A stretch of DNA of 64,000 nucleotides from an uncultured virus (IMG/VR IMGVR_UViG_3300037466_001622) (IMGVR_UViG_3300037466_001622), one strand, 5' to 3'. Counted from the stretch's first letter, positions 55 through 36,538 are shown. Notes: generated by a model not told the origin, from the sequence alone. Numbers and translations are program-made.

Positions 55-387
55 TTATATAGGCCATCCATCCACTCCATATGTCACGACCTGCTTGCCG
101 TGGTCTTCCATCTGGCCGCGGCTTGAGTGGCACGGCTTGCATGTGCTGATGAATGGACCCGACCAGAACTTGGCTACATCACCTTTGTGGCCGCCGTCCG
201 CATGATGGACCTCTGTTGCGGGCTCAACTATCTCTCGCTCGAGACACCACTCACATAGCGGATTCTGCGCTAGCTTAGATAGACGTAAGCGCTGCCAGCG
301 TGCCGTGTGATACAGACGCCTATATTCAACAGCTAGGCCGGACCTGGCGTCACGCCGCTTCGCACTTGAACTTGTTGACATTGTCAT
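55..387 (-). CDS. Packaging-associated HNH endonuclease (HK97 gp74-like)
   Basis: Y..ARWQRLR...NPLCEWC...ATEVHH...CKPCHS...GVDGWP pattern; terminal position upstream of the terminase on the circular map; start approximate. Confidence 0.85.
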   Translation of the reverse strand: MTMSTSSSAKRRDARSGLAVEYRRLYHTARWQRLRLSKLAQNPLCEWCLEREIVEPATEVHHADGGHKGDVAKFWSGPFISTCKPCHSSRGQMEDHGKQVVTYGVDGWPI

Positions 388-979
388 TTGCAGCGTTGAA
401 TAGGCGCAGTAGGAATGGATCATCCTTATGCTTGATGACCCAATGCATGAATAGACCTCTGTTCGCGTTGCACTGATGGCACGATGGAACGAGATTGGAT
501 ATGCAATTGTTCTCCTTGTCATTGTCAAGGTGGTCAACGACAAGCTTGCGTTTACCAATGGCACCCCATTCGACTATCTGAGCGCACCAATGACAAGAAT
601 GCTCACCTCCACCTATGGCGTCGTACAGCACCTGCCGGTGGTGATATAGAACTCCCGACTTCCCAGACATCGGATGTGATGGGCTATAAGAAATCACATA
701 TCCATGTGGCGCCACGAACTTGCGGCCAAATACCGGATCATCCGTTGTACCGTTTAGGTATCGCCTGTAGTAGTGCTTTTCGCACAGCTTTCCACCAATC
801 GTTCTAGATTGGTTATCGCATCCATCTATCGAACACGTAGCCCATATCCTTGCTGGCTTAGTAGGCAGGTCAAACGTTCCGTGCTTTAGCAGCCTTTGAT
901 AGTGCAGGCCACAAACGCTTGGTCCGTCACGGAACTTAGAGCGCGACTCTCTATCGCAATTTGGTGCTTCACACTTCAA
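350..979 (-). CDS. HNH homing-type endonuclease with N-terminal Cys/His repeats
   Basis: CxxxxC..C..HY repeats, then VVDHLDNDKENNCISNLVPSCHQCN. Confidence 0.85.
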   Translation of the reverse strand: MKCEAPNCDRESRSKFRDGPSVCGLHYQRLLKHGTFDLPTKPARIWATCSIDGCDNQSRTIGGKLCEKHYYRRYLNGTTDDPVFGRKFVAPHGYVISYSPSHPMSGKSGVLYHHRQVLYDAIGGGEHSCHWCAQIVEWGAIGKRKLVVDHLDNDKENNCISNLVPSCHQCNANRGLFMHWVIKHKDDPFLLRLFNAANDNVNKFKCEAA

Positions 980-1164
980 GGTCTCGACTCCTTGTCGACC
1001 TCATGTTGATAGCGGCGGACAGCATTAAGCCATCCGCCGCAGCGCTTACGAGAGGTCGAGAATCGCAAGCGGTTTAGTTGGTCGTCGGCGCCTATCGTAT
1101 GCACTCATGCGCCACCGTATGAACCACAACAGCAGCGCATTGAGCAGCCTCGATAATGATGATG

Positions 1165-1395
1165 TCACTCATCGTCGCCATCCCAATGCACCAACGCTTC
1201 CTCTGGATAGGCGTCGATGTTCATGCCTTTGTGGTCGTCATACCAAGCAACCTCAACGCACCCATGCTCGCATACGCTAAGCACTGTCATAAGCGGCGAG
1301 CCGGTAAGCAACTGCACGATGTCGCCAGGATAGAAGGCGTCGTCGGTAACGACAGGCTCAACGCTGAACCAAGGGCTGTTAATGTGTGCGTTCAT
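1165..1395 (-). CDS. YodC/DUF2158-like small protein
   Basis: FYPGDIVQLLTGSPLMTV...VAWYD...YPEEAL; RBS gaggag before ATG at 1395. Confidence 0.7.
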   Translation of the reverse strand: MNAHINSPWFSVEPVVTDDAFYPGDIVQLLTGSPLMTVLSVCEHGCVEVAWYDDHKGMNIDAYPEEALVHWDGDDE

Positions 1396-1825: not shown

Positions 1826-2563
1826 TCAAGCGGCAATGTCCTTACGCGCTACAGGTCCAAGCGCATCGCGTATCGTTATTAGCGCTAGGTGGCATATGGC
1901 ACGTCCAGCGCCAGGCTTTCCGTCTCTGCTTGACGCGCCACTGGCGGCACCAACCTCCGCAAGCGTAGCTCCGTCGACGCATGCCATTTCGAACGGCTCG
2001 AGCGTCGGGCCAAGCAGCGACTGAAGCCAGGCTAGTTTTTCACGCGCGTCGATCGCATCGTTGATGGCTCTGTCGCCGGTCCACGGCTTAGGAACCGGCG
2101 CAGCGTTCTTTTTGCTGTCTGGGTTGGTCGGCGTGGATCTTGTAGGCGGAATGTCGGACGAGGCTCCTTTGCGCACAACCTCGCCGCCGTAAGAAATGCG
2201 TCCAGTGCTTTCGTCAATCGAACTGCGATGCACGATTGTCATGTCTGCGCTAGGCTGGCCCTTGATGCCAATAAGAACCTCGCTCTTTGCCATCTCGTAT
2301 GTCCTGCGGTAGGCCATAGCGTATTTCAGCAGTTCCGCATTGCCTTCCGCAAGGAGCGCCTTTGCTAGCGGCCAGTTGATATTGTCGTTATCGGCGGTGC
2401 CGTCCCAATCCTTGCCGAATGAGGCTCGCACAGCCAGGCGACGCTTCTGCGCATGAATGCCCGCCCGCTCGTCATCGCCATATGTCATGCGAGCCGGCAA
2501 TTCGTCGCCATATCCGAATACAATGCGCGTTCTCTTGTTGTCGCTTGTTGAGGCTGACGACAT
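1826..2563 (-). CDS. Putative late-gene transcription regulator (C-terminal HTH)
   Basis: C-terminal CVDGATLAEVG helix-turn-helix-like segment; position between replication and late genes; own operator-controlled promoter. Confidence 0.5.
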   Translation of the reverse strand: MSSASTSDNKRTRIVFGYGDELPARMTYGDDERAGIHAQKRRLAVRASFGKDWDGTADNDNINWPLAKALLAEGNAELLKYAMAYRRTYEMAKSEVLIGIKGQPSADMTIVHRSSIDESTGRISYGGEVVRKGASSDIPPTRSTPTNPDSKKNAAPVPKPWTGDRAINDAIDAREKLAWLQSLLGPTLEPFEMACVDGATLAEVGAASGASSRDGKPGAGRAICHLALITIRDALGPVARKDIAA

Positions 2564-2637: not shown

Positions 2638-2832
2638 TTAAGGCCGCTGAGGGCGCCAGCCACTATCTAGCGCCTGCATGACTAGCGCCAACAGGCGCGG
2701 CACTGGTCGAGGATTGGTTGTGCGTTCGAATTCGCTAACGCGCATGGGCGAGCCGTAGTCAAGAAACGCAGCAAGCTCCGCTTGGGTCATTCCCAAACGG
2801 AGCCGGATTTCGCGGAATTCTTGGTTGGTCAT
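2638..2832 (-). CDS. XRE-family HTH protein
   Basis: MTNQEFREIRLRLGMTQAELAAFLDY...VSEFE. Confidence 0.8.
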   Translation of the reverse strand: MTNQEFREIRLRLGMTQAELAAFLDYGSPMRVSEFERTTNPRPVPRLLALVMQALDSGWRPQRP

Positions 2833-3035
2833 GCGGCGACCAAGGAACAAATTACAGATCCGTCGACAGTCCTGTCTGATGAAACCGGTAGCATGTAACT
2901 TGAACCGTTTGCTTTTGTGATGCGCAATAATGTCGCCGACCCTCGTACAGCGTTTGCGCGAACCTCTCGCATTGCGAGTCCTGCTTCGCGCAGTTGGCGT
3001 TTAGCTTGCCGCAAGGTGATTTGCATTTTTGCCAT
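2829..3035 (-). CDS. Hypothetical protein
   Basis: RBS aagga, ATGA overlap with the downstream HTH gene. Confidence 0.55.
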   Translation of the reverse strand: MAKMQITLRQAKRQLREAGLAMREVRANAVRGSATLLRITKANGSSYMLPVSSDRTVDGSVICSLVAA

Positions 3036-3320: not shown

Positions 3321-3821
3321 TTATGCAGCTTTTTTCAAACTATTTTCGTTGCCGCTTATTGAGGCCAACCATCCCCGCACAATCGCCTCGCTAGCGTCGG
3401 CGCATTCCGCAGCGCTCTCAGCCTTGACCAATTCGACCTTATGGCCGATCGCGGCTAGCGCCGCATGCCTGTGCGTCTGCTCCGGCGACAGACGACCCTT
3501 TGCCGCCTTGTACTCAATCAAGCCACAGCGACCGCCAGGCAAGAACACGGTCAGGTCGGGATGGCCAGCCGTCAAGCCGGTAGCTAGCGCCTTGGCCGCC
3601 TCGTTGCGTCCGCGCTTGCCGGCCTCCATGCCGCCAACAAGAAGGAACTGCCTGCCGTACTCATCCATGCCACGCAGCCTACGCACCGCGGCCGCCTGTA
3701 ATTCCCACTCGAGCGGCGCTGCCGGCTTAACCGTGACCTTGCCGTTGCGGGTGGTGAGCCGAACGCGGGCGCCGTTGATGCGGACGGTTTGGATGGTGGT
3801 GGATTTGGTCGATGTTTTCAT
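3321..3821 (-). CDS. VRR-NUC domain nuclease
   Basis: GLTAGHPDL...LIEYKAAKGRLSPEQ motif. Confidence 0.9.
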   Translation of the reverse strand: MKTSTKSTTIQTVRINGARVRLTTRNGKVTVKPAAPLEWELQAAAVRRLRGMDEYGRQFLLVGGMEAGKRGRNEAAKALATGLTAGHPDLTVFLPGGRCGLIEYKAAKGRLSPEQTHRHAALAAIGHKVELVKAESAAECADASEAIVRGWLASISGNENSLKKAA

Positions 3822-3844
3822 TTCTTTCTTTCCCCCTACAAGCA

Positions 3845-4107
3845 CCCATACACGACACCCCTCCTAAAGGAGGGGGTGTGTATGTATGGGTTGATGCTCA
3901 GGTTTAATATATGGCCATACATCAATGTATGGGTGTGTATGGGTTGATTGATAAGTTGTTGTTTTCTCTTTATTTATTGCCCATACATACACACATACAC
4001 ACCCATACACGCAATCGCTTGATATGCTGAATTTTGCTATACGCAACCGCTGATATTGTATGGGATGGTTTGTGCAACTCTAGATGATGTATGTATGGGT
4101 GTATGGC
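3845..4107. repeat. Iteron-like CCATAC/GTATGG cluster; putative replication origin
   Basis: About ten CCATAC copies in both orientations around an AT-rich core, directly downstream of the primase-helicase. Confidence 0.65.
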
Positions 4108-4119: not shown

Positions 4120-6267
4120 CTAAGCGCGTTCGATTGTGGGCCAGACCCAAATACTGCTCTCTCCCACCTTCTTCTTCTTAATGAGGCTCTTGCTTACGCG
4201 CTTGAACGTCGCCTGCTTGGTGGGTTGCAGCATATCGCCTAGCGCCTCGTAAAAGGCATCGCGCCAAGCATCGCAGGAGACCAATTTCGTGTCTTCCGGC
4301 AAGCCGTGCATACCCGGCGATTCTTCTCCATCTTCCTGCATTTCCATCAGCAGAATTAGCGCTCGCTCTTCATGCGACGATGCCTCCGCCAGGCTTTTCG
4401 CCGCACCATCTGACGCCACCTTAAGCACGACCGGTGCTGTCGTCGGTTCGCCATCCTCATCAACGCCAAGCCCGACAGACTTCATTGCAAACGCCAACAC
4501 TTCGCCCTCTTCGCCGTCGTTTGTTCCATCACAAACCAGCTTGTAGGATCCGCCACTCTTCTTCACCATGAAACTGGCATCGACGGCCCCATCTAGGTCA
4601 ATAGCTCCCTTTCCGCGGTCGCCTGACCATGACGAGTGATGAATGGCTGTAACGTGCGCTTTTGTTTCCATCAGGATTTCATCGCATGAACTGACAAACT
4701 TGGTCATGTCTTTGGATGCATTCTGATCGCCGCCTCCAAACACGCGCGTAAGCGTGTCGATAATAACCCACACGCATTCAGTATTGGTCTCTATTTCTGC
4801 CTTCTTGATCTCGGCAATTAGCTCGCGAACATCCTTTAGGTCTTTCGTGAAGTCGAGTCGCCCTCCTATGACCAGCAATGGAACATCCTGCACCCCGTGT
4901 TCCTTACGGAACGCCATCATGCGCCGCTCTGTTAGCTTCTTGCGCTCAGCCGCGACGTAAACGACCAATCCTGGTTTTACTCGTCTACCGTGCCAATCCT
5001 TGCCGCACGCAACGTGGCAAGCCATGTCGGTAACAATGACGCTCTTGCCGGTGCCTGGCAGGCCGCTAATCGTGGTGAATTCTCGCTCACCAAGAACGCC
5101 CTTGATAAACGTTACCTTCGGCTCGCCTTCTTTTATGTTGTCAAACCATGTCAGATCGAACCGTTCGCGCTTCTTTGGCGCCGTCCCTTGCGGTGAATCC
5201 TCCCTGGGCTCATCCTCCGGCGCGCTTTCCGTAGGCGCCTCGTCCTGCGCGTCCGTCTTCTTGTTTTTTGCCAGGAGCTTGGACGTGTCCATTAGCTTGG
5301 TGTTGTCGTTCTGATATTCTCGTTCCTTGATGACGCGGGGAGCCTTGATGCCGTCATCCAGGCCGCGCTTGATACGCGCGAGCGTCTGTTTTTCACCGTC
5401 CTTTCGCAGCACACCGTTGTGCGCTGCGCCGCGGTAGAGCTCGTCCTCGGCAATATCTCGAGACAAGACGCCAGCGCCGACCAACTGCCCAAGAGAATAC
5501 GCAGAGGCGTTCAATTGCGACCCGCGATTGCCAACCGTCGCAGAAGCGAGTTTGGAGATTTCAGACTCCATCGCCGTGTTCACATACGGCGCAAGATCGC
5601 GCTGCGTATAGGTGTAGTCGCGGCGTGGCTGCTCCACTTCCTTCTTTGGCAAAAGCAGGTCGAGTAGCCACTGCGGCGTATCGGCAAAGTCCGGAATGCC
5701 AAACGGCTCGTATGGTTGCCCGTCAGCGTCTATCCATGTGTATTTGCGACCGTCAGCCATGACGGATCCGGGCCCAACGATGTACCCATCTTGGCCTCTC
5801 GTGTCCACGCCCGGCGCTATGGCGGCGCGGTTGCGAATTCCTTCCACGTTCTTGAAAAATACGTGCGTTCCGCCGTTCGCCGTCCGCGCCCTGGCTGTTT
5901 CCGGCAACGCGCCATGCTTGGTCTCCATATCGGCAAGCCACGCATGGCCGTCGCGATCGCCGTGCTTGTCAAGATCAAGCACCCACGCCCCTAACGGCTC
6001 GCCAGTAGGGAGTCCAATGAGCGCGTTTGGGTGTCGCTCGTTAAACCAAATGCCGACGATGCGCTCGGAACGCGTGGCGCCCTTCAGGCCATTGGACGTG
6101 TAGGGTGATTTTTCTGGCCGCGTGATGATCTCGCCGGTTGCCTGGTCGACTTCGTCTATCTCTACCTCATGGCAAGGGAAGACGGGGATACCGGCCGCGA
6201 TGTAGGAGCGAGCGACATCATATGGCGTTTCGACACCTGACGGCACCTTGAAGTTGATTTTTGCCAT
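4120..6267 (-). CDS. Bifunctional primase-polymerase fused to RecA-type (AAA_25) helicase
   Basis: N-terminal VFPC...VLDLD...TANGGTHVFF prim-pol motifs; Walker A GLPGTGKS; Walker B IIDT. Confidence 0.92.
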   Translation of the reverse strand: MAKINFKVPSGVETPYDVARSYIAAGIPVFPCHEVEIDEVDQATGEIITRPEKSPYTSNGLKGATRSERIVGIWFNERHPNALIGLPTGEPLGAWVLDLDKHGDRDGHAWLADMETKHGALPETARARTANGGTHVFFKNVEGIRNRAAIAPGVDTRGQDGYIVGPGSVMADGRKYTWIDADGQPYEPFGIPDFADTPQWLLDLLLPKKEVEQPRRDYTYTQRDLAPYVNTAMESEISKLASATVGNRGSQLNASAYSLGQLVGAGVLSRDIAEDELYRGAAHNGVLRKDGEKQTLARIKRGLDDGIKAPRVIKEREYQNDNTKLMDTSKLLAKNKKTDAQDEAPTESAPEDEPREDSPQGTAPKKRERFDLTWFDNIKEGEPKVTFIKGVLGEREFTTISGLPGTGKSVIVTDMACHVACGKDWHGRRVKPGLVVYVAAERKKLTERRMMAFRKEHGVQDVPLLVIGGRLDFTKDLKDVRELIAEIKKAEIETNTECVWVIIDTLTRVFGGGDQNASKDMTKFVSSCDEILMETKAHVTAIHHSSWSGDRGKGAIDLDGAVDASFMVKKSGGSYKLVCDGTNDGEEGEVLAFAMKSVGLGVDEDGEPTTAPVVLKVASDGAAKSLAEASSHEERALILLMEMQEDGEESPGMHGLPEDTKLVSCDAWRDAFYEALGDMLQPTKQATFKRVSKSLIKKKKVGESSIWVWPTIERA

Positions 6268-6863
6268 TAGGCTGCGGTCCTTGTCGCTTCAATGATGTGC
6301 GAAATTGCGGTGTTTGCGCTAATCGCGAACCATTCTCCGTTCCTTCGCTTATTGGCGAAGTGGATGTGCGCGGCGCCCTCTATCTCATTCGCGTTCTTGG
6401 CGTATCTGGTGAATTCAAGACGCAGCGAATGCGGGCTTGATGTCGACAACGTCTGCAAACGCTTCTCAGGCGAGCGAGCAATACCAATCTTGCAAAGTGT
6501 GTCGCCGCTATCCTGGCACGATATCACATAGACGAAGCGGCCGCTTTTCTCTGGCTTCTCCTCCTGTTTGGCTGCGGCAACCACTGGTTTCGGTCTACGC
6601 TTAGGCGCAGGGTTTAGTATCAGTTCAACAATATCCCATGCCGCAGCACTTATCGTCTTCCCGTGGAAGTCAGATGTGTCGTCAGGTGACGGAACCTCGC
6701 AGGCTACTGACAGGTAAGAAAACGCCTTTTGTCCCTTCTCTTGCATGTGCGCGATCGGGTGCTCTAGTGTAATCTCAAGCACCTTTCCGCACGCCGTCTT
6801 GAAGCGTGCTATTGAAAGGTTGGGCGCCGGTTTCTCGAATTCGGAATCCACTATCTCATACAT
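6267..6863 (-). CDS. GIY-YIG-like (T5orf172/Mug113) nuclease domain protein
   Basis: FVYVI...KIGIARSPEKRLQTL...E..AH...NGEWF. Confidence 0.85.
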   Translation of the reverse strand: MYEIVDSEFEKPAPNLSIARFKTACGKVLEITLEHPIAHMQEKGQKAFSYLSVACEVPSPDDTSDFHGKTISAAAWDIVELILNPAPKRRPKPVVAAAKQEEKPEKSGRFVYVISCQDSGDTLCKIGIARSPEKRLQTLSTSSPHSLRLEFTRYAKNANEIEGAAHIHFANKRRNGEWFAISANTAISHIIEATRTAA

Positions 6864-6864: not shown

Positions 6865-8001
6865 CTATGCTGCTGCCTTTGCGGCTTGTGGTGCGTTGTC
6901 GTTGGCGGCTGTGGGCGAGATGGCCGTTAACGCGCGCTCTACGCGCAAGATTGCGCGGCCGATTGCTTCGGGGATTTGCGGGAGGACTGCGTCGCCGAAG
7001 GCTTCGACGATGAGACCAGCTGCAGATGTCCCTCTTGGACCGCCGACTGCAATGCGCGACTGAGCCACCCACTCGGATAGCCCATCATCCACCCGTGGGT
7101 GATAGGCAAGGCCGCCGTTCCAGTCAGCCCATGGCTCTGGAGTAGGCTTGCCAGCGCCCTCGCGCCCGCCCATTTCGCCATCGACGGAGCCGTGAGGTTG
7201 CCCTTCGCTGTTGGGGTTAGGGACAGTTGATGCCGTACCGTCCCCATGCGACCCGTGTCGCCGTGACCGCCCGCCTTCATGTCCGACGCCCTGGGCGCCG
7301 GCATTCCCGCATGTTTCGACGGGTAGCCCCTCAACTGGCTCAACACGTCGCCGCGACCACCCCTGTCCGCATCCGTCTTGCGAGGCGTTGCTCGCAACGC
7401 CTCTTTCCCTGTCAGCAGGGAATTCAGCGACGGCCTCACCGGTCCAGTCCGGCCAGCCGCTCCGCCCTGATCGCTCCCGTACGAAGTTGCGGTCAGCGTC
7501 GGCAATTGAGAATCCAATGAGCCAGGATCGCTTGCGCTCGTGGTTGGCCCCGACGTCTCCAGCACTAACCACGAATGGCCAGCAGGTGTAGCCGATTGCC
7601 GCCAATGCATCGATGATCCGGTCTGCGCCTCGAGTTCTGAGATTAGCGCTATTTTCAAGAGCGAACCAACGAGGTCGGCATTCGTCAATGAGCCGGACGG
7701 CTTCGAAGTAGAGTCCGCTCCGCTCGCCGTCGACGCCTTTGCCTTTTGTGTTGGCGCTTGAGATATCCTGGCACGGAGGCGAGCCGACGATGACGTCGGG
7801 AAGTCCAACACCATCCCGAATAAGTCTGCCTGCGGTAAGTGTGGTGACGTCGTCATAGACCGGCACTCCTGGGTTGTTCTGTGAGTAGAGCGCGCGTCGC
7901 CAATCAATGACTTCGCAAGCCGCGATCGTGCAAAAGCCGGCGCGATGCATCCCAAGGGACCACCCACCGGCTGCCGCGCTGAATAGGTCTAGGACTTTCA
8001 A
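6865..8001 (-). CDS. DNA (cytosine-5) methyltransferase, alpha polypeptide
   Basis: LDLFS..GG (I), PPCQDIS (IV), LENS (VI), HERKR (VIII), GDAVLPQ (X); TTG start with ggagg RBS overlapping the upstream stop. Confidence 0.9.
   Translation of the reverse strand: MKVLDLFSAAAGGWSLGMHRAGFCTIAACEVIDWRRALYSQNNPGVPVYDDVTTLTAGRLIRDGVGLPDVIVGSPPCQDISSANTKGKGVDGERSGLYFEAVRLIDECRPRWFALENSANLRTRGADRIIDALAAIGYTCWPFVVSAGDVGANHERKRSWLIGFSIADADRNFVRERSGRSGWPDWTGEAVAEFPADRERGVASNASQDGCGQGWSRRRVEPVEGLPVETCGNAGAQGVGHEGGRSRRHGSHGDGTASTVPNPNSEGQPHGSVDGEMGGREGAGKPTPEPWADWNGGLAYHPRVDDGLSEWVAQSRIAVGGPRGTSAAGLIVEAFGDAVLPQIPEAIGRAILRVERALTAISPTAANDNAPQAAKAAA
6939..7856 (-). CDS. Overlapping-frame methyltransferase beta polypeptide (motif IX carrier)
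   Basis: 305-codon nested ORF with AGGAG RBS; GWMMGYPSGW resembles motif IX, which is missing from the alpha frame. Confidence 0.7.
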   Translation of the reverse strand: MTTSPHLPQADLFGMVLDFPTSSSARLRARISQAPTQKAKASTASGADSTSKPSGSLTNADLVGSLLKIALISELEAQTGSSMHWRQSATPAGHSWLVLETSGPTTSASDPGSLDSQLPTLTATSYGSDQGGAAGRTGPVRPSLNSLLTGKEALRATPRKTDADRGGRGDVLSQLRGYPSKHAGMPAPRASDMKAGGHGDTGRMGTVRHQLSLTPTAKGNLTAPSMAKWAGARALASLLQSHGLTGTAALPITHGWMMGYPSGWLSRALQSAVQEGHLQLVSSSKPSATQSSRKSPKQSAAQSCA

Positions 8002-8339
8002 AACGGCGCCTCCGTCCTCACCAACCGCCTCAATTCCGCGGCGCATCCATCCCAAATCGTGCCGCAGAACTTCAGCACCTGCTCTTCCGACCATTCGGCC
8101 AGGTCGCTGCCCCACTCCTCGACAAGCGGGCCAGCCGCGGCCATGCCGCCTTGTCTTGCGCGGATTTCGTAGGCGTCGGCGCGCCTGATCTTCTTGAAGT
8201 CCTCGAGGATTAGCGAGCATTCAGCGCAGAGCCACTTTGGGTCGGTATCGCGGCTATGCGTGAAACCGATCCCGATGCCGATGGCGTGCTTGCCGCAGAA
8301 GTGGCAGTCGGCTGGTGTGTGTTTGTCGGTGGTTGTCAT
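7998..8339 (-). CDS. Cys-motif hypothetical phage protein (DUF6511-like)
   Basis: CHFC...CAEC, DLAEWSEEQ; coupled to both neighbours. Confidence 0.65.
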   Translation of the reverse strand: MTTTDKHTPADCHFCGKHAIGIGIGFTHSRDTDPKWLCAECSLILEDFKKIRRADAYEIRARQGGMAAAGPLVEEWGSDLAEWSEEQVLKFCGTIWDGCAAELRRLVRTEAPF

Positions 8340-9142
8340 GCTGCCTCCTGTTGCTGCGCAACCGGAGGGTTGTCGTTCGCAAACATGTCGAGCGGCTTCA
8401 CCTTCTTGGGTCGGTCAGCAAACATGTCGCCCTGCGCATATGCTTTAGTGATGCGCTCGCACGCGACGTCGAAGTACTTGGCGTCCAGTTCAATGCCGAT
8501 GAACTTGCGGCCCATCCTGGCGCAGGCAACTCCGGTCGTGCCGCTGCCCATGAACGGGTCGAGGATGGTTTCGCCGACACTGGTGAAGTCGGCCAGCAGT
8601 TCTGCCATGAGGCGCCATGGCTTCTCCGTCGGATGGCGATGATCCCTATCGGATGGATTTGTCAGGTGCGTGTAGACACCGCGCTTGCCGCCAGCGTTCC
8701 AGCGCGCATGACCCTTGCCAGCCCAAGCGCAGACAAAGTTTTCGGCACCCATGGCCGGACCCTGGCCGTTAAGTTGCGGCGTGCCGTCCGGCTTTATCCA
8801 AACGCAGGCGCGCTTGTATTTCATCGTGCTTGCGTTGACGGCGTCGGCCCACCTTCCGACGCCTTCTGGCGTGCAAAAGACAATAAACCATCCGCCGCAA
8901 AGTTTCTCTGCAGCCTTAATGAATGGCTCGCGGATGCCGTCAATGGAAGCGAAGTTTAGAGCCTCGAGTTCGTTGCCGCCATCGGTGCGTAAATGCTTCC
9001 GATGCCTGAATTTTGCTTCGTGCATAAACGCTTCATACGGCGGATCCGAAATCACATGGCTAACCGAGCCAAGCGTCGTCATCACCTCAAGGCAATCACC
9101 ATTGTACAGCGTGCAATCGCCGATGGTTTCAACGCGCATCAA
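8336..9142 (-). CDS. DNA N6-adenine/N4-cytosine methyltransferase (beta class)
   Basis: SDPPY, HPTEKP, ILDPFMGSGTT. Confidence 0.95.
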   Translation of the reverse strand: MMRVETIGDCTLYNGDCLEVMTTLGSVSHVISDPPYEAFMHEAKFRHRKHLRTDGGNELEALNFASIDGIREPFIKAAEKLCGGWFIVFCTPEGVGRWADAVNASTMKYKRACVWIKPDGTPQLNGQGPAMGAENFVCAWAGKGHARWNAGGKRGVYTHLTNPSDRDHRHPTEKPWRLMAELLADFTSVGETILDPFMGSGTTGVACARMGRKFIGIELDAKYFDVACERITKAYAQGDMFADRPKKVKPLDMFANDNPPVAQQQEAA

Positions 9143-9689: not shown

Positions 9690-9890
9690 TTATGCGGCTT
9701 CGCGTATATCGGCCCGCGCATGCGCCTGCGCCAACCTAATTGCGTCATCTCTCACCACAATCCATCCAGCCGCACGCAGCGCGCTAACGCACTGCACCGC
9801 TAGTGCCGGCGCGCCGACATAGCCGTCAACGCAGCCGCGTAGCGTGTCGGTAAGGACTTCGGTTGGGGTTCGATCAGAACGGAATGTCAT
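9690..9890 (-). CDS. Hypothetical protein
   Basis: Overlaps helicase end, same strand. Confidence 0.45.
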   Translation of the reverse strand: MTFRSDRTPTEVLTDTLRGCVDGYVGAPALAVQCVSALRAAGWIVVRDDAIRLAQAHARADIREAA

Positions 9891-11634
9891 CGTCCAAAAC
9901 CTCTCTCATGCCTGGCGAATATTTGTCGTTGTCAGATGGTTGGTCGTTATCGTTAGCGTGCTGTCTTGTGGTCCCTGCGCGGTAGTCGGTAACGGTCCAG
10001 TATTTGGGATTTTGCTTATTGGGTGCGACGCTGATCTCTTCGGTGTCTGTTAACTCGGATTGGCGATCAAGGAACTCAAGGACGCTTTTTGGCATCGGGC
10101 GTCGGCCTCCATGCCTTACCCAAAACCGATCAGTCTTTGCCTTGAAGAAGCCGTCATGTCCCGGTCCGAGCCAATCGTTGATTACGGTAAGGCCGCATGT
10201 GTATCCGACTTTGATGCTATCTTTTTTGCCCGGCTTGGCCTCGTGAAAGTAAAACCTACGGCCAGTCACAGTTCGCCACCTCGCGGCCTCCGTACTCAGT
10301 ACGGGAGCATCGCCAGCAGTTGCAGTAATCTTCACCTCATCCGATGGCGGGAACACATAGCCGCAGCAGTGGCAGGTGCGCGCTGAGGCGTGGACAATCT
10401 CACCGCATCCGAAGTTGCCATTTACGTCTCTAACCGCGCCTGGCGAGTTTTCATCAGGACACAGGCGTTTCGGCGCCTCGCCATCACCCTCGCCTGGTGC
10501 CTTTGGCCGTATCTGATCGATCGGACCATGGAACGCCAGGTTCTTGCCGTGGTCGGCAATCAGGCAGTCCTCTTTACCGGGAAAATTGCGCGTTCCGCGG
10601 CCAAGTATCTGGACGAGTTTGCCTGGCGATTTGGTCGACAGGATGAGGCTTATGAAATCAACCCATGGGAAATTTGTTCCTGTGGTGATCATGCTCACCG
10701 ACGAAATGGCCCAATACTTTCCGGCCTTGAAGCCTTCGAATATCTCCTTTGTCTGGTGCGCGTTGTCACTCGTCAGGACAGCGCACGGTCGGCCATGGCG
10801 CTTAACGCACTCCGCGATGTGCCTGGCGTTCTCTTTGCTGGTGCTAAAGAACAGTCCGCCGCGGCGCCCCTCGGACATAGCCATGTCTTCCGCCACCGCG
10901 TCTTCAATGATCTTTTCGGCTGCCTCTGAAAGCTGACCGGGGATGTACTCGCCGCCGCGTGTTCCGACTCCCTTCAAGTCGATCTTAGCGGTTGTCTTGT
11001 GACTGGTTAGCCTGGTCAGATATCCTTGCTCGATTAGGTCTGTAATCTTAGCCTCGTATACGACATCATCGAACAGTTTCAGCCGCAGCGGATTGCCTTC
11101 GTCATCAACCTCGCCATCTGACTCCATGTCATCGGTAAGCCGCCCGCTATCCATGCGATAGTCGGTTGCCGTCGTCCCCATGACGCGGCTGTCCGGATTG
11201 CGCCTCTTGATGCCTTTGAAGAATGCGCCGTATTGCGTGTTCGCGTTGCGGCTGATGGCGTGCGCCTCGTCAACAATCACAAGATCCACATCGCCAATCT
11301 CTTCGGTGCGCTTATATACCGACTGTATGCCGCAAAACAGGATTTGCGCTCGGCTGTCGCGACGTCCAAGGCTAGCAGAGTAGATTCCTGCCGGGGCAAA
11401 CGGCGATAGGCCGATGAACTCCTTGAAGTTCTGCTCAACAAGGGGCGCCGAATGCGTCACGTTGACAATGCGCATGTCGGGATAGTCAGTCAGCAACTCC
11501 TCAATAATCTTAGCGATTACGAGCGCCTTGCCGGCCCCGGTCGGGAGCACGATAAGACCATTGCCGCCACCGTTCGCCCAATAGGCGTACAGGGCGTCGA
11601 TGCTTTCTCTTTGATATTGTCTCAGTTCAAGCAT
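9874..11634 (-). CDS. Superfamily 2 DEAH helicase (RadD/YejH-like)
   Basis: LRQYQ, LPTGAGK, DEAH, TAT, QILGRGTR, C-terminal Cys cluster. Confidence 0.93.
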   Translation of the reverse strand: MLELRQYQRESIDALYAYWANGGGNGLIVLPTGAGKALVIAKIIEELLTDYPDMRIVNVTHSAPLVEQNFKEFIGLSPFAPAGIYSASLGRRDSRAQILFCGIQSVYKRTEEIGDVDLVIVDEAHAISRNANTQYGAFFKGIKRRNPDSRVMGTTATDYRMDSGRLTDDMESDGEVDDEGNPLRLKLFDDVVYEAKITDLIEQGYLTRLTSHKTTAKIDLKGVGTRGGEYIPGQLSEAAEKIIEDAVAEDMAMSEGRRGGLFFSTSKENARHIAECVKRHGRPCAVLTSDNAHQTKEIFEGFKAGKYWAISSVSMITTGTNFPWVDFISLILSTKSPGKLVQILGRGTRNFPGKEDCLIADHGKNLAFHGPIDQIRPKAPGEGDGEAPKRLCPDENSPGAVRDVNGNFGCGEIVHASARTCHCCGYVFPPSDEVKITATAGDAPVLSTEAARWRTVTGRRFYFHEAKPGKKDSIKVGYTCGLTVINDWLGPGHDGFFKAKTDRFWVRHGGRRPMPKSVLEFLDRQSELTDTEEISVAPNKQNPKYWTVTDYRAGTTRQHANDNDQPSDNDKYSPGMREVLDDDIPF

Positions 11635-21381: not shown

Positions 21382-21397
21382 TTTTGAGAGGGAACGC

Positions 21398-23451: not shown

Positions 23452-23708
23452 CCGCCATCAACATCATCACCGCCGCCGAAGCCCTTGCACAAGGCTCGAC
23501 GCCATCGACCTTCTTCAGCATCGCGCGCTTCAATGAGCGCGTTGGCGATAACGCAACCGGCCAAGTGGCGCGCCGTGTCGGTCGCGAGCTTGCTAAATTG
23601 TTGGGAATGGATCTTGGTGGGCGCCGTCGTCCTGCGGCTGCAAACGCGAACAGCAAGCAGTACAGCAAGCAGTACGGTAAGCCGCGCAGCGAACGGAGGG
23701 CGGCGTGA
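23448..23708 (+). CDS. Hypothetical protein
   Basis: ATGA overlap with the ligase, ggag RBS. Confidence 0.55.
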   Translation: MTAINIITAAEALAQGSTPSTFFSIARFNERVGDNATGQVARRVGRELAKLLGMDLGGRRRPAAANANSKQYSKQYGKPRSERRAA

Positions 23709-25725: not shown

Positions 25726-26074
25726 GGCGGCGAATGATAATATCGCGCCAGGCCAGGTCTACAAGTTGGACGAGGCTGCGGCGCACCTGCGGTTGACGAA
25801 CCGCGGAGTTGCGAAGCTTGCCAGGCGACACGGCCTTTGCATGGTGCGCGGGCGAGATATTCTGCTTACAGGAAAAGACATCGAAGCAATCAAGGACGTC
25901 TTGCGATGCCCCTCAAACTATACGAACGTGGAAGCACTTGGTGGATATCGGGGACCGTCAAAGGAATTGGACCTGACGGGAAAAAGCAAAGCGTCAGTAT
26001 CCGACAAAGCGCGCAGACTTGTGATCGAACGGTCGCGGAAGCCACACGCGCAAAAACTGAAAGCCGCATCCTAG
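25718..26074 (+). CDS. Putative excisionase (HTH)
   Basis: YKLDEAAAHLRL...; overlaps integrase 5' end. Confidence 0.65.
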   Translation: MGEAANDNIAPGQVYKLDEAAAHLRLTNRGVAKLARRHGLCMVRGRDILLTGKDIEAIKDVLRCPSNYTNVEALGGYRGPSKELDLTGKSKASVSDKARRLVIERSRKPHAQKLKAAS

Positions 26075-27078
26075 ACGAAATTGCCTACGGCAAGGCAAAG
26101 GTCGTTACATTCCGCGAGGCGGCAGAATCCTATCTCGAATCTGGTGGATCCGGTCGGTTCATACTGGATGTCCACCAGGACGGGAGCGAGTCAGGCCTCA
26201 TGGTCCACTTTGGCGAGACGCGGCTTACCGATATCAAGCAGAAGGAACTCGACGCCGCCGCCCTGGCTTTGTTCCCAACCGCGCAACCAGAGACGCGCAA
26301 TCGCCAGTGCTACACGCCGTTCATCGCGGTTTGGAACCATGCCGTCAAAAACGGTTGGGCCGAAGTTCGCATGTGGCAGAGGCCACGGAAGCCAAAAGGC
26401 ACAAACGTTGTTCGCTTAAAATCTGAGCGCAGCGGTCAGCGCCCGGTCGACTACGAGCGCGCCGCCGCTTTTGTCGCGAAGATGTCTCCAGCGCCGGCCA
26501 TGCTGATGACAGCGCTTTTTTACACCGGACTGCGACCTATCGAGGCTTTCGCGCTTACCGGCGCCGACGTCGACCTGGTTGGCCGGTGGCTTGTCGTGCG
26601 CAAGTCCAAAACCGGTGAGCCTCGAGGCGTGCCGCTGCATTCGTTCCTATGCGAGTGGCTGGCGCCGCTTGTCGAACGGGCGAAAGATGGTGGCGCTTTG
26701 TTCCGCACGCCGCGCGGCCAGCAGTACACTGAGGTTCAAGACGGTGGCGGCGGACTTAAGACCGCAATCAGCGGTGCGCGTCGGCGTTCCGGCATCAAGG
26801 ACGTGTCACCTTACACCGGCCGCCATACCGTATCGACTGGCTTGGTGATTGCTGGGGTTCATCCGCACGTCAAGGACCAGATCCTCGGCCACGCGGTCAG
26901 CGACATGAGCCGCCATTACACCAACGTGCCGCAGGCACCGCTTATCGAGGCGATCGACAAACTGCCTGTACCAGGCGCGTGGCGAAAATTGCCGTGGCTG
27001 GCCGCGCCGCAGGAGTGGTGGTCGCGGTTGGCCGAAGGAACTGGAAAGAGGACGGATTTGGAGAGGGCGAAGGGATGA
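25906..27078 (+). CDS. int: Tyrosine integrase
   Basis: YTGLRPIE (R), KSK, PYTGRHT (variant of HxxR), ILGH, HY. Confidence 0.93.
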   Translation: MPLKLYERGSTWWISGTVKGIGPDGKKQSVSIRQSAQTCDRTVAEATRAKTESRILDEIAYGKAKVVTFREAAESYLESGGSGRFILDVHQDGSESGLMVHFGETRLTDIKQKELDAAALALFPTAQPETRNRQCYTPFIAVWNHAVKNGWAEVRMWQRPRKPKGTNVVRLKSERSGQRPVDYERAAAFVAKMSPAPAMLMTALFYTGLRPIEAFALTGADVDLVGRWLVVRKSKTGEPRGVPLHSFLCEWLAPLVERAKDGGALFRTPRGQQYTEVQDGGGGLKTAISGARRRSGIKDVSPYTGRHTVSTGLVIAGVHPHVKDQILGHAVSDMSRHYTNVPQAPLIEAIDKLPVPGAWRKLPWLAAPQEWWSRLAEGTGKRTDLERAKG

Positions 27079-27326
27079 ATGAGCGCAATGCTGATTTTTG
27101 GCGAGGCGTCAAATGGGCTGCAGATCAAGCTGAGGACGAGGCGCGCGATCTGCAAGAAATTCGAGACAGTTATATCGAAGCCAGGAAAACCGGAACTCAT
27201 GGCGGTAGGCGCATCAGCGACGAGATGGCAAAGCAGTTTGCGCAACAATTCCGTGAGCGGTCTGATGCATTATTCCTATTCGCGGAACGCATTGGCCGAG
27301 CCGATTCGGAAGTGAACGCAGCATGA
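27075..27326 (+). CDS. Hypothetical protein
   Basis: ATGA overlap with the integrase stop. Confidence 0.55.
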   Translation: MNERNADFWRGVKWAADQAEDEARDLQEIRDSYIEARKTGTHGGRRISDEMAKQFAQQFRERSDALFLFAERIGRADSEVNAA

Positions 27327-29276: not shown

Positions 29277-29638
29277 ATGCCAAGCGCGACCTGCCGGATA
29301 TCCCGTGGTCTGATAGCCTAATGGACAGCGGGCTTCTGAGGAACGGCCGGAGACCAGACCGATACGACGGCAAGGTCTTTTGGACATGTGGCGGCTTAGC
29401 TTTCTGGTATGCCTTCTATTGGTGGGACAACTCCGTAGACACGCGGGGTGCGTCAAACTCGGGCTTTTATGTGAGAGGGTTCGGTTGGCCTGAAGCGCAG
29501 TCGGCGTTCGATTATGCGTGCACTCAGTTTCCCAAAGTTGTCGCCAGGCAGAGGCAGCCGCTCATGCTGCAGAATCCTGCGCCGATCGCATCCGCCGCCT
29601 AGGCAGCGTTATGGCGCGTTACTGATGGCGTTATCGCC

Positions 29639-32694: not shown

Positions 32695-33324
32695 CTAGGC
32701 TCCGCCCATCATCTGCTGCACCATCCGTCTGGCCTCACGCTCAAGCTCTCCGACCGTTGACGCGGAAATAGTAACGTCAGCCGCCACAGCGGCCTGCACA
32801 GCATCGCTCTCAACGCCGGCCGGCCCTTCATGCCCCGGCCGCTCCAAGCGCACCACGCGCCCGCCCTGAGCCTGAAACCAGCCAGACTCGTACACGACCG
32901 ACTCTACCACGATCGGAGCGCGCGGATTGCGCTTACGGGTTAGCGCAATCTCCATTCCGAGTGTCCAATCAACGCCCATCGTCGCGCCCATGAAGTGGCC
33001 GAACTTCTCCATAAAGAAGCGCGGCGATTGTCCGCATGGCAACAATGACGACGGCTTGTCCTTAAGCATGCCGTAGACCATGTCCTCGGCAATGACCGGG
33101 TCGCCGGTGACATACTGGAACCATGCGCGGGAAGCCTCCTTGCCGCCTTCGAAGGCGTGGATCCTGGCAAAGCCAAATTCCTGCTCCAAGAGGTTGGCGA
33201 CAGTCGACTTGCCGACGTTACGCTTGCCGGTGAGGCCGATCATTATTGGCCTGCCGAGCATCGGCCGGTTATCGTTGGCGGCTAGGTCGTGTCCGCCCCA
33301 AGGTGAATAGGCAAGCGCGGTCAT
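32695..33324 (-). CDS. Deoxynucleoside monophosphate kinase-like
   Basis: IGLTGKRNVGKSTVA, SPR..ME.FG, GRVVRLER. Confidence 0.8.
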   Translation of the reverse strand: MTALAYSPWGGHDLAANDNRPMLGRPIMIGLTGKRNVGKSTVANLLEQEFGFARIHAFEGGKEASRAWFQYVTGDPVIAEDMVYGMLKDKPSSLLPCGQSPRFFMEKFGHFMGATMGVDWTLGMEIALTRKRNPRAPIVVESVVYESGWFQAQGGRVVRLERPGHEGPAGVESDAVQAAVAADVTISASTVGELEREARRMVQQMMGGA

Positions 33325-33800
33325 GCTGCTTCCTCGTCGGCCACATAGCCAAGACGTTCGGCGGTATTGTACAAGATGGACCGCAGTGGCTCGCGCACGT
33401 CGTACTTGTGGCAGGCAGCAGATAACCGCATACACGAGTCCTTGCCCCGCTCGCTTGCAGCCTTCCAATCGAAGAACATTTCAACGATGTCGAATAGGTC
33501 CATGCCAGCAACGCCTAGCGGATAGTGTTCTGGATGATGGCTGTTTTTGGCGCGATGGTGGGTGATCATATCCCCAAGCATGTCGGTGCGTCGTTTGTAT
33601 TCCTCAGTGCCAAACTGCGCCGGCCCCTCCGCATCGATAATTGCCTGCATCTTGGCAAGCGGCTCTAATTCGACCAGCTCAAACTTGGAAGCATCATGAC
33701 GGTCGCCGCGCTTGATCATCTCAATGGCGAAACCATTTAGCAGTTCCCGCACTCGCGAGATGTGCTTATGCGTCACAATTTCTGCGTTGCGAGTATCCAT
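33321..33800 (-). CDS. HD-like protein (DUF5662-like)
   Basis: KHI..V, RHDASK, HH...NSHHPEHY, EMFFDWKAA. Confidence 0.8.
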   Translation of the reverse strand: MDTRNAEIVTHKHISRVRELLNGFAIEMIKRGDRHDASKFELVELEPLAKMQAIIDAEGPAQFGTEEYKRRTDMLGDMITHHRAKNSHHPEHYPLGVAGMDLFDIVEMFFDWKAASERGKDSCMRLSAACHKYDVREPLRSILYNTAERLGYVADEEAA

Positions 33801-34208
33801 TCAAACCTCCTCCTTAACCTTGCGCCTCGGCGCGCCTTCTCTTGTTGGGCGATCGCGCACCGGACCATTTGGTGCCGCAGGCTTGTAGCCGTCAGGGTCG
33901 GCGGCGATATTCTTGAGCGATGCCAGCGGGTCGTTTACGACCGGACGGAATCGCGACGCGCGAAACGGCAAGTCGTGATAGCCGAATTCCGGATCCTCTC
34001 CGCGGTCCAATCCCTCGACCTTGATGCCGAGATATTCGCCGTCGAGGTAGTGCACGAAGACGCCAAGCCACCTAACCTTATAAACGGCGCCAAGCACCAG
34101 TTCGCACGGCAGGCTTACGCGCTGCTCCGGCCTATATCCGTTGTCGACACAGACCACGTCCTGGCCGACATAGAACTTGTGCGTTGGGTCGAAGTTGTCG
34201 GTGGTCAT
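33801..34208 (-). CDS. Hypothetical protein
   Basis: FYVGQDVVCVD...ASRFRP; in operon. Confidence 0.65.
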   Translation of the reverse strand: MTTDNFDPTHKFYVGQDVVCVDNGYRPEQRVSLPCELVLGAVYKVRWLGVFVHYLDGEYLGIKVEGLDRGEDPEFGYHDLPFRASRFRPVVNDPLASLKNIAADPDGYKPAAPNGPVRDRPTREGAPRRKVKEEV

Positions 34209-34429
34209 GCGCCACCCATTATGGCTGCGCCAACGTTATCGACCTCATCGACGGCAAGCGCGTTGCTTGTAACGAGGATAGAAGCCGCAGCATGTGCGCA
34301 CCGTTTGCGTTCTGCCAGGATGGCGCGAGAGATTATCTGCATCCCTACTAATGAGCCAATCCATCCATCTATGCCTTCGGTGACGAGCCTTGCCGTCAGC
34401 GTTATATCGTCTGGAATTATTTCGCTCAC
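34205..34429 (-). CDS. Hypothetical protein
   Basis: RAILAERKRCA; coupled ORF. Confidence 0.55.
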   Translation of the reverse strand: MSEIIPDDITLTARLVTEGIDGWIGSLVGMQIISRAILAERKRCAHAAASILVTSNALAVDEVDNVGAAIMGGA

Positions 34430-35262
34430 GCCGCCTCCTTCGCCATCTGATAAGCGCGGTCAGCCGCAGACGCCACGCGGTCTTGCTCGTGGTAGTGGTC
34501 GTCGGTGGATGGCCTACCCAACTGCCGCAAACTTGCGAACGTCTCGAGAAACGCAGCCTCCGCCTCCTCCGGCGACCAGAATTGCAACTCGACGCCAAGC
34601 GGGTCGCTGTGCTTTGCGTGCCAAGCCATCGGTGCCATGTTGACGAGCTCGTCGGCGATGATGCGATTGTCGGCATCATGCACGACGTCGGGCATGACTT
34701 CCGGCAAGCTGTAGCGCGCTGCGATAACCTTCCAGAGCGCAGCCTCGTGCATCCGGTACTCATGCATGCTGCGCTTAACGGGGCGCGGCATATCCACCAA
34801 ATAGGCTTCGGTTGCGTCGTGCATCAGGCCGCACAGCGCGTCGGCGGCCGAGCCGTGCCACCATATCCAATTGGCTATCAGCACGGAATGTTCGGCAACC
34901 GAATAGAAGCGCTTGCAGTGGCCGGCGTACCGGCACTGCAGGCTCAAACTGTGCGCGATGTCCTCGATATGCACCTCGTCGGGCCGAGCGTCCAACGGCC
35001 AGAACTGGCGAGCCGACCAAGTCTGCATGAAGTCGCCAGTACGGTTGTCGTTTGCGGCCCGCCAGTAAGCCGTCTTGTCGCCATCTGGCGCGCCAAGGTC
35101 TATCCCAACGAAAACAGGCGCTGCGTCTAACGCCTCGCGCGTCATCGGCCCAAACGTCTCCTGCGCCGTTGTGTCGTGCTCAACGTAGCAGCGGGCTACG
35201 GAGTCCCAATGGAGGTCTGGTTCACGAAGCTTTTCAAAGGCGATTCCGTCAAGCAACCCCAT
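34426..35262 (-). CDS. HD-domain phosphohydrolase (YfbR/YfdR-like)
   Basis: IEDIAHSLS..CRYAGH, YSVAEHS, LMHDATEAY..DMPRPVK. Confidence 0.9.
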   Translation of the reverse strand: MGLLDGIAFEKLREPDLHWDSVARCYVEHDTTAQETFGPMTREALDAAPVFVGIDLGAPDGDKTAYWRAANDNRTGDFMQTWSARQFWPLDARPDEVHIEDIAHSLSLQCRYAGHCKRFYSVAEHSVLIANWIWWHGSAADALCGLMHDATEAYLVDMPRPVKRSMHEYRMHEAALWKVIAARYSLPEVMPDVVHDADNRIIADELVNMAPMAWHAKHSDPLGVELQFWSPEEAEAAFLETFASLRQLGRPSTDDHYHEQDRVASAADRAYQMAKEAA

Positions 35263-36538
35263 GCATCATCTCCTTCGGCTCGTTGTCGTTGGCTGCGGTG
35301 CGCCATCCGCCAACCATGCCAGGTGTGAGCGTCAGCCGCGCAACCTCGCCATGGTTCTTGCTGTAGGTGATGACCTTCGCGGAGCGGCCAGACAGCCACC
35401 CGCCGTTGGCCGCATAGGCGTCCGCCGCGGCAAGCGTTTCGTGCCGCTCGACCTTCATCAGGTTTGTCGACTTGAGCTCGTCGCTGTGCAGGTGGCCAAG
35501 GTGCGCATAGCTGAATTTGGTCTGGCCGTACATTTCGCGGAACTTGCCCGCGAACACGGTATCGACGTTGCCGATCTTGCGCTTGTGTCCGTGATGGACG
35601 AATAGCGACACGTCGCCATGCTTGTAGCCGTAATAGGTGCTCGCCGAGCTATCGACAGTCACGCGCGGCTCGTTGTCATAGAACGCTGCGAACATCTCGC
35701 GCAGCCACGCCTCACTTGCCGGGTCGTGGTTGGCGTCGGCCATGATGACGTGCACAAACTTGTGCTTCTCGAGCAGCATGGCGATGACGCGCCGCAACGT
35801 GCGAATGACGACCCGGATAACCTTCGGCAGGCGGCTGTCCGCATCCAAGATATGGCCACTCGTTGGTGTCTTGGACTCAAAGCCGTCATAGTGGAGAAGG
35901 TCGCCAATCTGCGCAAAGATTGCCGTCTCGGCAGGCGGCGCAAGGTCGATTGCCGCCGCGAACCAATCCAGCAGAAGCTTTTCGGCGATCGGCAGGTCGT
36001 AGTCTGCGCCGGTCTCCTCGCGCCAGGACAGCATCCCGAAATGCGCGTCGGTAACTGCGTAGAGATTCAACAATTCGCCAATTGTGGATCCCGGCGCCGG
36101 AGTGGGATCGATGCGCGGAACTTCCTCCTTGAGCGCGTCGACAACGGCGCGCATGACGGCAAGTTGCGCCTCGCGGTCAGCGTCAGTCTTGATCCACTTG
36201 ATAATCTCGCGGCCATACGGATCGACAAGCGCGCTGACGCCCTTGATCTTTTGGCCGGCAGGCATCTCAAAGACTTCGCCGCGTTCCGGCTTCTGCTGGA
36301 TAAACTCGGCGCGCAGATTGCCGTCGCCGTCATAGACGGCGGTTTCTTGGCTTATGCGAAATCCATGCATAACCGGCTCGGTGCCGATCAGCCCTCGCTC
36401 CGCAGCTTGCCGCAAGTGTCGCTGCACTGTCTCACGCGATACGCCGAGCGCCTTGGCGGTTGCCGTCTGGTTTTCATTGTTGGCTAGATACGCAGCATGT
36501 GTTGCAAGCAGCGTTTCGTTAGGTGTGGCGGGAGTCAA
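35249..36538 (-). CDS. HTH plus calcineurin-like metallophosphoesterase
   Basis: N-terminal TAKALGVSRETV; DAHFG, GDLLH, ANHD, HHGH, GHLH. Confidence 0.88.
   Translation of the reverse strand: MTPATPNETLLATHAAYLANNENQTATAKALGVSRETVQRHLRQAAERGLIGTEPVMHGFRISQETAVYDGDGNLRAEFIQQKPERGEVFEMPAGQKIKGVSALVDPYGREIIKWIKTDADREAQLAVMRAVVDALKEEVPRIDPTPAPGSTIGELLNLYAVTDAHFGMLSWREETGADYDLPIAEKLLLDWFAAAIDLAPPAETAIFAQIGDLLHYDGFESKTPTSGHILDADSRLPKVIRVVIRTLRRVIAMLLEKHKFVHVIMADANHDPASEAWLREMFAAFYDNEPRVTVDSSASTYYGYKHGDVSLFVHHGHKRKIGNVDTVFAGKFREMYGQTKFSYAHLGHLHSDELKSTNLMKVERHETLAAADAYAANGGWLSGRSAKVITYSKNHGEVARLTLTPGMVGGWRTAANDNEPKEMMHGVA

Follow-up and report, generated by a model that had tools for sequence, protein, structure and literature searches.

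Motifs resembling the transfer-messenger RNA tag in unrelated proteins of a phage related to Rhizobium phage 16-3, and their probable link to the host SspB-ClpXP protease

The window analyzed here, the whole 64,000-nucleotide stretch of DNA recorded in IMG/VR as uncultured virus IMGVR_UViG_3300037466_001622, is the near-complete genome of a temperate phage resembling Rhizobium phage 16-3, and eight of its unrelated proteins carry the tetrapeptide ANDN, with which the alphaproteobacterial transfer-messenger RNA (tmRNA, or ssrA) tag begins. The occurrence of this tag-like motif is real, strong, and reproducible, and the mechanism proposed for it is probable: as judged from sequence and structure prediction, the ANDN mimic probably hands its carriers to the host SspB-ClpXP protease. 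The helicase of the window is 70% identical to that of RHph_X2_25 and 68% identical to that of 16-3, and the features of 16-3-like membership, namely, the repressor, the integrase, and HK97-type head genes, are present, as are lysis genes. The window encodes tRNA-Pro, and no tmRNA was found within it. Its gene set of 104 genes (19,896 amino acids) was partly hand-curated, with 4 calls dropped or re-started and 15 added; the gene caller recovered 77 of the 79 annotated stops on RHph_X2_25. Carriers were assigned to families by Pfam and PHROGs profile matches.

ANDN occurs in 8 of the 104 window proteins, against a mean of 0.18 and a maximum of 3 in 2,000 per-protein shuffles, and is the top-ranked tetrapeptide of the window (Poisson 2e-11, or about 3e-6 after correction for 160,000 tetrapeptides). 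The eight nonhomologous carriers named in the initial annotation were recovered with all copies and quoted tails in frame (Table 1), and the variants GNEN, DNDN (within ADNDN), and ANNN were also found. The family names given there fit the Pfam and PHROGs matches, the "phosphoesterase" being phrog_704 ("DNA repair exonuclease") and the "Xis" resting on an HTH_17 match (E value, 2.5e-4) and the position before the integrase only. Four of the eight copies lie 13 to 14 residues from the C terminus (HNH endonuclease, both methylases, and the phosphoesterase-like protein; three ending AA and one VA), the helicase copy lies 27 residues from the end, and those of the Xis-like protein, the deoxynucleoside monophosphate (dNMP) kinase, and the HD hydrolase are N-terminal or internal. 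Four of the eight proteins end AA, one of them with the motif far from the end. The matched family profiles do not cover six of the copies; the kinase copy falls at a profile edge, and the HD hydrolase copy falls within one profile and outside another; order-promoting residues make up 0.23 of the flanks versus 0.31. All carriers are nonstructural (8/71 versus 0/32 structural genes), a difference that is not significant in the window (p 0.055). The description of the carriers as an early proteome proved too narrow, with three of the eight located behind the lysis genes in late orientation, as judged from the map, and one more in an HNH pair at the genome end, adjoining the packaging genes. Several carriers keep the motif among relatives: ANDN is present in 14 of 15 members of the N6/N4 methyltransferase family despite differing tails, in 29 of 34 helicases, in all five dNMP kinases, and in all five members of the phrog_704 family. 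Relatives of the primase-polymerase/helicase have ANDN at the linker site or in the tail, and the single-stranded-DNA-binding (SSB)-like family has it in the other 27 of 28 members.

The motif is a protein-level one and not a DNA repeat, as the initial annotation had stated. All eight window matches to back-translated ANDN and all 10 matches to the NDN pattern are in frame, and of the 341 DNA matches found across 39 elements, 322 lie within called genes in the correct frame. Codon use within the motif is close to that of the genomes themselves, and the GCA codon with which four host tags start is not in excess (0.19 versus 0.18).

ANDN enrichment is a trait of the family. ANDN is the top tetrapeptide in five of five near-complete 16-3-like genomes, with 46- to 122-fold enrichment; RHph_X2_25, 16-3, RHph_TM3_3_14B, and NV1.1.1 have 15 to 19 copies each (112- to 122-fold), and all 35 helicase-anchored loci have 2 to 15 copies. 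No copies were found in RHph_X2_26 and RHph_N2, which have rhizobial hosts, equal GC content (0.59), and equal Ala content, and nine nonrhizobial phages gave only 0 to 1 matches. AA ends are likewise few in these two control rhizobiophages (4/130 in RHph_X2_26 and 7/74 in RHph_N2, versus 18 to 27 of 86 to 104 in the 16-3-like family). Across the near-complete genomes, the motif is present in 4 of 121 structural versus 76 of 407 other proteins. Against the host background, which was drawn from hosts of related prophages, 13 of 34 and 23 of 54 ANDN DNA matches in two host genomes lie inside a 58- to 63-kb prophage, a density about 55 to 80 times that elsewhere. Only 6 of the 20 matches outside the prophage and the tmRNA in the Agrobacterium genome are in long frames, which indicates that the host core proteome lacks the motif. 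One of these six frames encodes a ParB-like protein and another a phage capsid-protease; each of the two ends AA. The ParB-like protein (L088:497-2254, minus strand), with AANDN and an AA end, lies outside the prophage and indicates that the tag mimic may extend to other mobile elements.

Family-level counts were made after removal of duplicates (L007, L019, and L022) and of members of >90% identity. Among 1,306 nonredundant phage proteins, 290 ANDN copies were found versus 2.2 expected. The residues N, D, and N are strict, and the first place favors A, with D, S, E, V, and T enriched too (for example, DNDN, 29 versus 1.2 expected, and SNDN, 21 versus 1.0 expected); A or P precedes ANDN in 242 of the 290 copies. 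The "ANDE" form suggested in the initial annotation is not enriched in this family (7 versus 4.2 expected), and neither is ANDD. Fifty-eight of the 290 copies lie 11 to 14 residues from the C terminus. Of 531 families, 65 contain ANDN, and among homologs its position may be N-terminal, internal, or C-terminal. In the primase family it occupies two separate sites, and a quick 28-row tree gives at least five changes. This distribution fits a small docking motif that has been gained and lost repeatedly.

AA C termini are found in 18 of 71 nonstructural versus 1 of 32 structural or lysis genes of the window (Fisher p 0.006), consistent with the more than 15 nonstructural open reading frames (ORFs) with AA ends reported initially; an HNH gene at 55-564 was counted among the structural genes, and reassigning it changes nothing material. 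The accompanying statement that virion proteins mostly lack this end describes a tendency, and portals of relatives carry the mimic. Family-wide, AA ends are found in 118 of 243 ANDN proteins versus 235 of 942 other nonstructural proteins and, at the level of families, in 27 of 47 with ANDN versus 69 of 435 without it. When ANDN lies in the last 20 residues, 49 of 86 proteins end AA and 74 of 86 end Ala, the helicase and SSB families being excluded. Leu precedes AA in 1 of 66 tails with NDN versus 22 of 287, a difference that is not significant (p 0.09). Neither mark is a feature of the repressor family (ANDN, 0/24; AA, 1/24), and the small helix-turn-helix (HTH) gene divergent from it, presumably in the Cro position, has both (18/19 each).

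The comparison with host tags that had been called for gave a clear likeness. The tmRNA tags of four of four rhizobial prophage hosts start ANDN and end LAA, with ANDN 12 to 13 residues from the end, and sspB is present in four of four rhizobial, three of three Brevundimonas, and two of two Stenotrophomonas hosts. In three of the four rhizobial and all three Brevundimonas genomes (L056 to L058 and L507 to L509), sspB and the tmRNA gene are no more than about 0.7 kb apart. When an Agrobacterium SspB dimer was modeled with the C-terminal 32 residues of the C5 methylase, the predicted complex scored 0.64, the best of three controls being 0.02; of 157 solved complexes, 116 reach the score mark applied, as do 2 of 215 mismatched pairs. 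At least 68% of contacts are shared between runs, and the predicted local distance difference test value of the partner is at least 52. The closest predicted contacts are methylase residues 365 to 369, A-A-N-D-N, and the AAA end is left free; the motif is thus predicted to bind in the SspB groove. The solved SspB-alpha structures 2QAS, 2QAZ, and 2NYS match the SspB used, and 2QAS is reported to contain a tag peptide.

Taken together, sequence and modeling make it fairly probable that these phage proteins have docking sites for SspB written into their genes, in many cases together with weak degrons for ClpX. The sequence [AP]-A-N-D-N would be a short linear motif by which proteins dock on the host adaptor SspB-alpha. 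It would reproduce the start of the tmRNA tag of alphaproteobacteria and may have arisen repeatedly in loose tails and linkers of unrelated proteins of 16-3-like phages. SspB would bind the motif and tether the carrier to ClpX, which would engage the AA (or VA, SA, or HA) end, and ClpP would degrade the carrier. Most phage ends lack the Leu of the host LAA and would therefore probably be weak degrons that need SspB to work well. Their role is probably to limit the lifetime of replication, recombination, methylation, nucleotide, and excision proteins, and leaky or abortive expression in the lysogen would likely be cleared in this way. That DNA-handling and switch proteins are the targets is suggested by the repressor, which lacks the marks, and by the divergent HTH gene, which has both.

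The initial proposal of SspB/ClpXP degrons is partly supported by the tag-like head, the spacing, the association of ANDN with AA, the presence of SspB in the hosts, and the predicted groove fit, and several observations weigh against it. Four of the 8 window carriers and 125 of the 243 family-wide nonstructural ANDN proteins have no AA end, and in helicase and SSB tails ANDN precedes PF or SK/KK ends. The spacing shows a further peak at 17 residues and many distant copies. In Escherichia coli, according to PMC10862746, a terminal AA is necessary and often insufficient, and an upstream Leu helps; the phage tails, mostly without Leu, fit weak adaptor-dependent degrons, but also nonfunctional ones. 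In PMC9393093, the Caulobacter tag is quoted and SspB speeds the turnover of tagged proteins. Among the matches listed in a viral scan for ANDN-x6-AA, 30 of 72 proteins are portals. RHph_N2 has an integrase and no ANDN, so that temperate rhizobiophages can dispense with the motif. As for the predicted complex, its SspB is an Agrobacterium stand-in for that of the window's own host, and its score may show likeness only, since solved SspB-alpha structures exist.

Of the other explanations, those by chance or compositional bias, by a motif at the DNA or RNA level, or by captured pieces of tmRNA DNA can hardly be credited. The motif was chosen after looking at the sequence, and its flanks are Ala and Pro rich, but ANDN is again the top tetrapeptide in four other genomes and its DNA matches are overwhelmingly in frame, so that the frame and replication tests already contradict such an origin; for tmRNA capture, the lack of both a GCA excess and a tmRNA in the window also argues against it. 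It is very improbable, if a little less so, that AA ends result secondarily from gene overlap (ribosome-binding site, spacer, and ATGA) in GC-rich DNA and that only ANDN is selected. This idea draws on a count that also tells against the degron interpretation: AA ends occur in 141 of 294 family genes with a 4-base overlap versus 128 of 580 without a close downstream gene, and 123 of the 141 end GCATGA. The two control rhizobiophages, however, have AA ends in only 4 of 41 overlapped genes, the family exceeds them among nonoverlapped genes as well (128/580 versus 7/81, p 0.005), and ANDN itself is left unexplained. The stop/start overlap thus probably inflates the AA-end count rather than creating it.

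Two further explanations keep the motif as a binding site and change its use or its reader. Abundant SSB and helicase proteins might soak up SspB and alter the turnover of tagged host proteins, or be shielded themselves, with degradation of carriers being secondary. This is unlikely, although the most constant carriers are the SSB-like proteins (27/28) and the helicase (29/34), which rarely end AA (6/28 and 1/34) and many of which have tandem copies, and although the SspB encoded by a Pseudomonas phage has been proposed to be a competitor (PMC5587285). A sink would need one abundant protein and not 65 families, and the AA-end link and the tag-like spacing indicate delivery to ClpX. Slightly less likely still, ANDN is read by another protein, such as a phage adaptor or a host hub other than SspB, and its likeness to the tag is incidental. 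The tolerance of D, S, E, V, and T at position 1, the relaxed position 4 of the Brevundimonas form described below, and several conserved family proteins without assigned function would suit such a reader, but spacing and AA ends match the host tag. A phage-encoded SspB was rejected, since no homolog was found in 41 phage sequences searched in six frames or in 5 phage records. The window encodes an HslV-family peptidase (phrog_1040; 13398-13883, minus strand) within the replication module, which cannot be the reader because it has no homolog in the other 38 elements.

Docking to SspB may reach beyond the 16-3-like family. A genome scan for the full mimic returned at least 80 named loci, mostly alphaproteobacterial and many of them tmRNAs; among the matches listed, prophage-like loci came from Bradyrhizobium, Afipia, Consotaella, Pseudaminobacter, Hoeflea, and others. 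In 151 genomes across the phylum, full-mimic matches occurred in 39, with at most four per genome, and are uninformative about taxa. A viral scan for AND[DE]-x6-AA gave 39 loci and led to Brevundimonas prophages (L402 to L410), few in number and reached through a motif-bearing protein, in whose 309 proteins [AP]AND occurs 35 times versus 2.2 expected, in 20 families; AA ends are found in 20 of 34 carriers and in 79 of 309 proteins overall. N occupies the fourth position in only 4 of the 35 Brevundimonas copies versus 69 of 73 in rhizobial loci. Brevundimonas tmRNA tags start ANDN in five of five cases, so the motif is not a letter-for-letter copy of the tag, which weighs against simple tag mimicry. 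The SspB proteins of the two groups differ at three predicted contact positions (F40Y, S87K, and D90G in Brevundimonas; three versus four sequences), and together with the relaxed Brevundimonas form, this suggests that the mimic may track the adaptor groove and not the tag letters. More tentatively, and with somewhat less than even confidence, alphaproteobacterial temperate phages may repeatedly evolve mimics fitted to the SspB groove of their hosts (NDN in Rhizobiaceae and [AP]AND-x in Brevundimonas), placing much of the nonvirion proteome, and often the portal, under one adaptor, whose supply would be a proteome-wide switch or safety catch on induction. In a Stenotrophomonas prophage lineage (L420, L421, and a subset of L243 to L276), AA ends are found in 69 of 214 proteins versus 8 of 286 in chromosomal control loci; a gammaproteobacterial dialect was not established, [AP]AND occurring only 7 times versus 1.4 expected, in three families, with 7 of the 9 loci chosen by the pattern itself. 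Related ANDN...AA tails were also seen in Paracoccaceae/Amylibacter records and, repeatedly, in one alphaproteobacterial genome (L101, L135, L153, L167, and L171; L100, L129, and L134). These tails possibly belong to other mobile elements; the four long frames scanned gave no Pfam match.

The phage feature is not a tmRNA tagging system, as the motifs lie inside ordinary genes and the window has no tmRNA, but on sequence and modeling it would work like an ssrA-type degron. The best copies share the A-A-N-D-N head, the AA end, and the 12- to 14-residue spacing of the alphaproteobacterial tag. Unlike that tag, the mimic is gene encoded and not added by trans-translation, its middle is free, Leu before AA is nearly absent, and many copies are N-terminal or internal without AA. 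In a table of PMC8138137, Escherichia coli RseA 1-108 ends VAA and is delivered by SspB, and Caulobacter CtrA ends AA, in the C-motif-1 class. These are natural proteins that, like the phage tails, expose an ssrA-like C terminus, one with the aid of SspB; they are single host proteins whose listed sequences lack the SspB-binding head of the tag, whereas the phage motif occurs in dozens of unrelated families. According to the same source, lambda O and MuA are degraded by ClpXP and lambda CII by FtsH, so that host proteolysis likewise limits phage replication or regulatory proteins; in those cases each phage has one or two such proteins, whose degrons are individual and not a tag mimic shared across the proteome. 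Pseudomonas phage pf16 also touches the SspB pathway, but it carries the adaptor (PMC5587285), whereas 16-3-like phages carry the ligand, no adaptor having been found in the phage sequences scanned. No description of phage-encoded tag mimics was found in the literature searched, whose coverage leaves out most subscription journals. ANDN, ssrA, tmRNA, degron, and ClpX are all absent from the main text of the paper on the AP-16-3 genome (PMC10460002).

If the mechanism is true, the tmRNA-tag pathway would serve not just for faulty proteins, and this phage group would use it as a built-in control of enzyme lifetime. To our knowledge, few natural SspB-alpha substrates are known; the phages would add hundreds of natural ligands and a natural map of adaptor specificity in two host groups, and they would offer tunable degrons for rhizobia. 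Phage 16-3 and Sinorhizobium meliloti would then allow a direct test of whether the host adaptor sets lysogen stability or lytic timing.

Table 1. Window genes with ANDN, variant motifs, or AA C termini (positions in nucleotides of the window)
Feature	Position	Strand	Motif	C-terminal end	Remarks
HNH endonuclease	350..979	-	ANDN, nt 380-391, 13 residues from end	AA	Full tag-like tail
C5 cytosine methyltransferase	6865..8001	-	ANDN, nt 6895-6906, 13 residues before end	AAA	
N6/N4 methyltransferase	8336..9139	-	ANDN, nt 8369-8380, 14 residues before end	AA	
SF2 helicase	9874..11634	-	ANDN, nt 9946-9957, 27 residues from end	DDDIPF, not AA	
Xis-like HTH protein	25718..26074	+	ANDN, residue 5, nt 25730-25741	AAS	
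dNMP kinase	32695..33324	-	ANDN, residue 16, nt 33268-33279	GGA	
HD-type 5'-deoxynucleotidase	34426..35262	-	ANDN, residue 70, nt 35044-35055	AA	Motif in N-terminal extension
HTH + phosphoesterase/exonuclease	35249..36538	-	ANDN, nt 35282-35293, 14 residues before end	VA	
Function-unassigned protein	1826..2563	-	Variant DNDN, nt 2381-2392	AA	ANDN in 4/5 family members
VRR-NUC nuclease	3321..3845	-	Degenerate GNEN, nt 3342-3353, 10 residues from end	AA	
Primase-polymerase/helicase	4120..6267	-	QNDN, nt 5302-5313		Motif in interdomain linker
SSB-like protein	15435..16028	-	ANNN + ANQN, nt 15489-15524		Motifs in tail
Small ORF	2829..3035	-	No ANDN	AA	Hand-called, without family match
T5orf172/MUG113 protein	6267..6863	-	No ANDN	AA	
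Small ORF	9690..9890	-	No ANDN	AA	
Sigma-70-like factor	11947..12447	-	No ANDN here	AA	ANDN in 10/32 family members
Cas4-domain exonuclease	12444..13397	-	No ANDN here	AA	ANDN in 6/30 family members
Sak4-like annealing ATPase	16069..16854	-		AA	
390-aa protein without assigned function	17601..18773	-		AA	AA end in 25/27 family members
Polynucleotide kinase-phosphatase	21398..22345	+		AA	
Small ORF	23448..23708	+		AA	
ORF behind integrase	26979..27326	+		AA	Hand-called, without family match
Small ORF	29321..29602	+		AA	Hand-called, without family match
DUF5662 protein	33321..33800	-		AA	
Prohead protease	60477..61175	-		LAA	Sole AA-ending structural-module gene

Several further features of the window were observed. 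The polynucleotide kinase-phosphatase contains AADDN, which was not counted as a copy of the motif and sits within the HAD domain. Together with a T4 Rnl1-like RNA ligase, this enzyme forms an RNA-repair pair that follows tRNA-Pro(TGG) (21304-23451, plus strand). The helicase end DDDIPF resembles the C-terminal tip of bacterial SSB; a PF end is found in 31 of 34 helicase family members and in 29 of 30 members of the family of the DUF6511 protein (7998-8339, minus strand), which makes a second host-motif mimic possible. The two HNH frames at 55-564 and 350-979 (both minus strand) share about 215 bases when 55-564 is read from its first start codon. Behind the integrase (about 27453-27504, minus strand) lies a tRNA-Thr(GGT)-like 3' half with matches in four of four rhizobial genomes (best match, 96%, in an Agrobacterium genome; 94% in Brucella pituitosa), which is probably the attP core. 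An IS256-family transposase (28008-29207, plus strand) is inserted in the phage, its closest plasmid copies being 87% identical (Sinorhizobium, Ensifer, and Rhizobium). A FkbM-family methyltransferase (43322-44116, plus strand) lies behind the tail-fiber gene on the opposite strand, and a trypsin-like peptidase with a signal-like N terminus (39614-40315, minus strand) is present in six of six near-complete family genomes.

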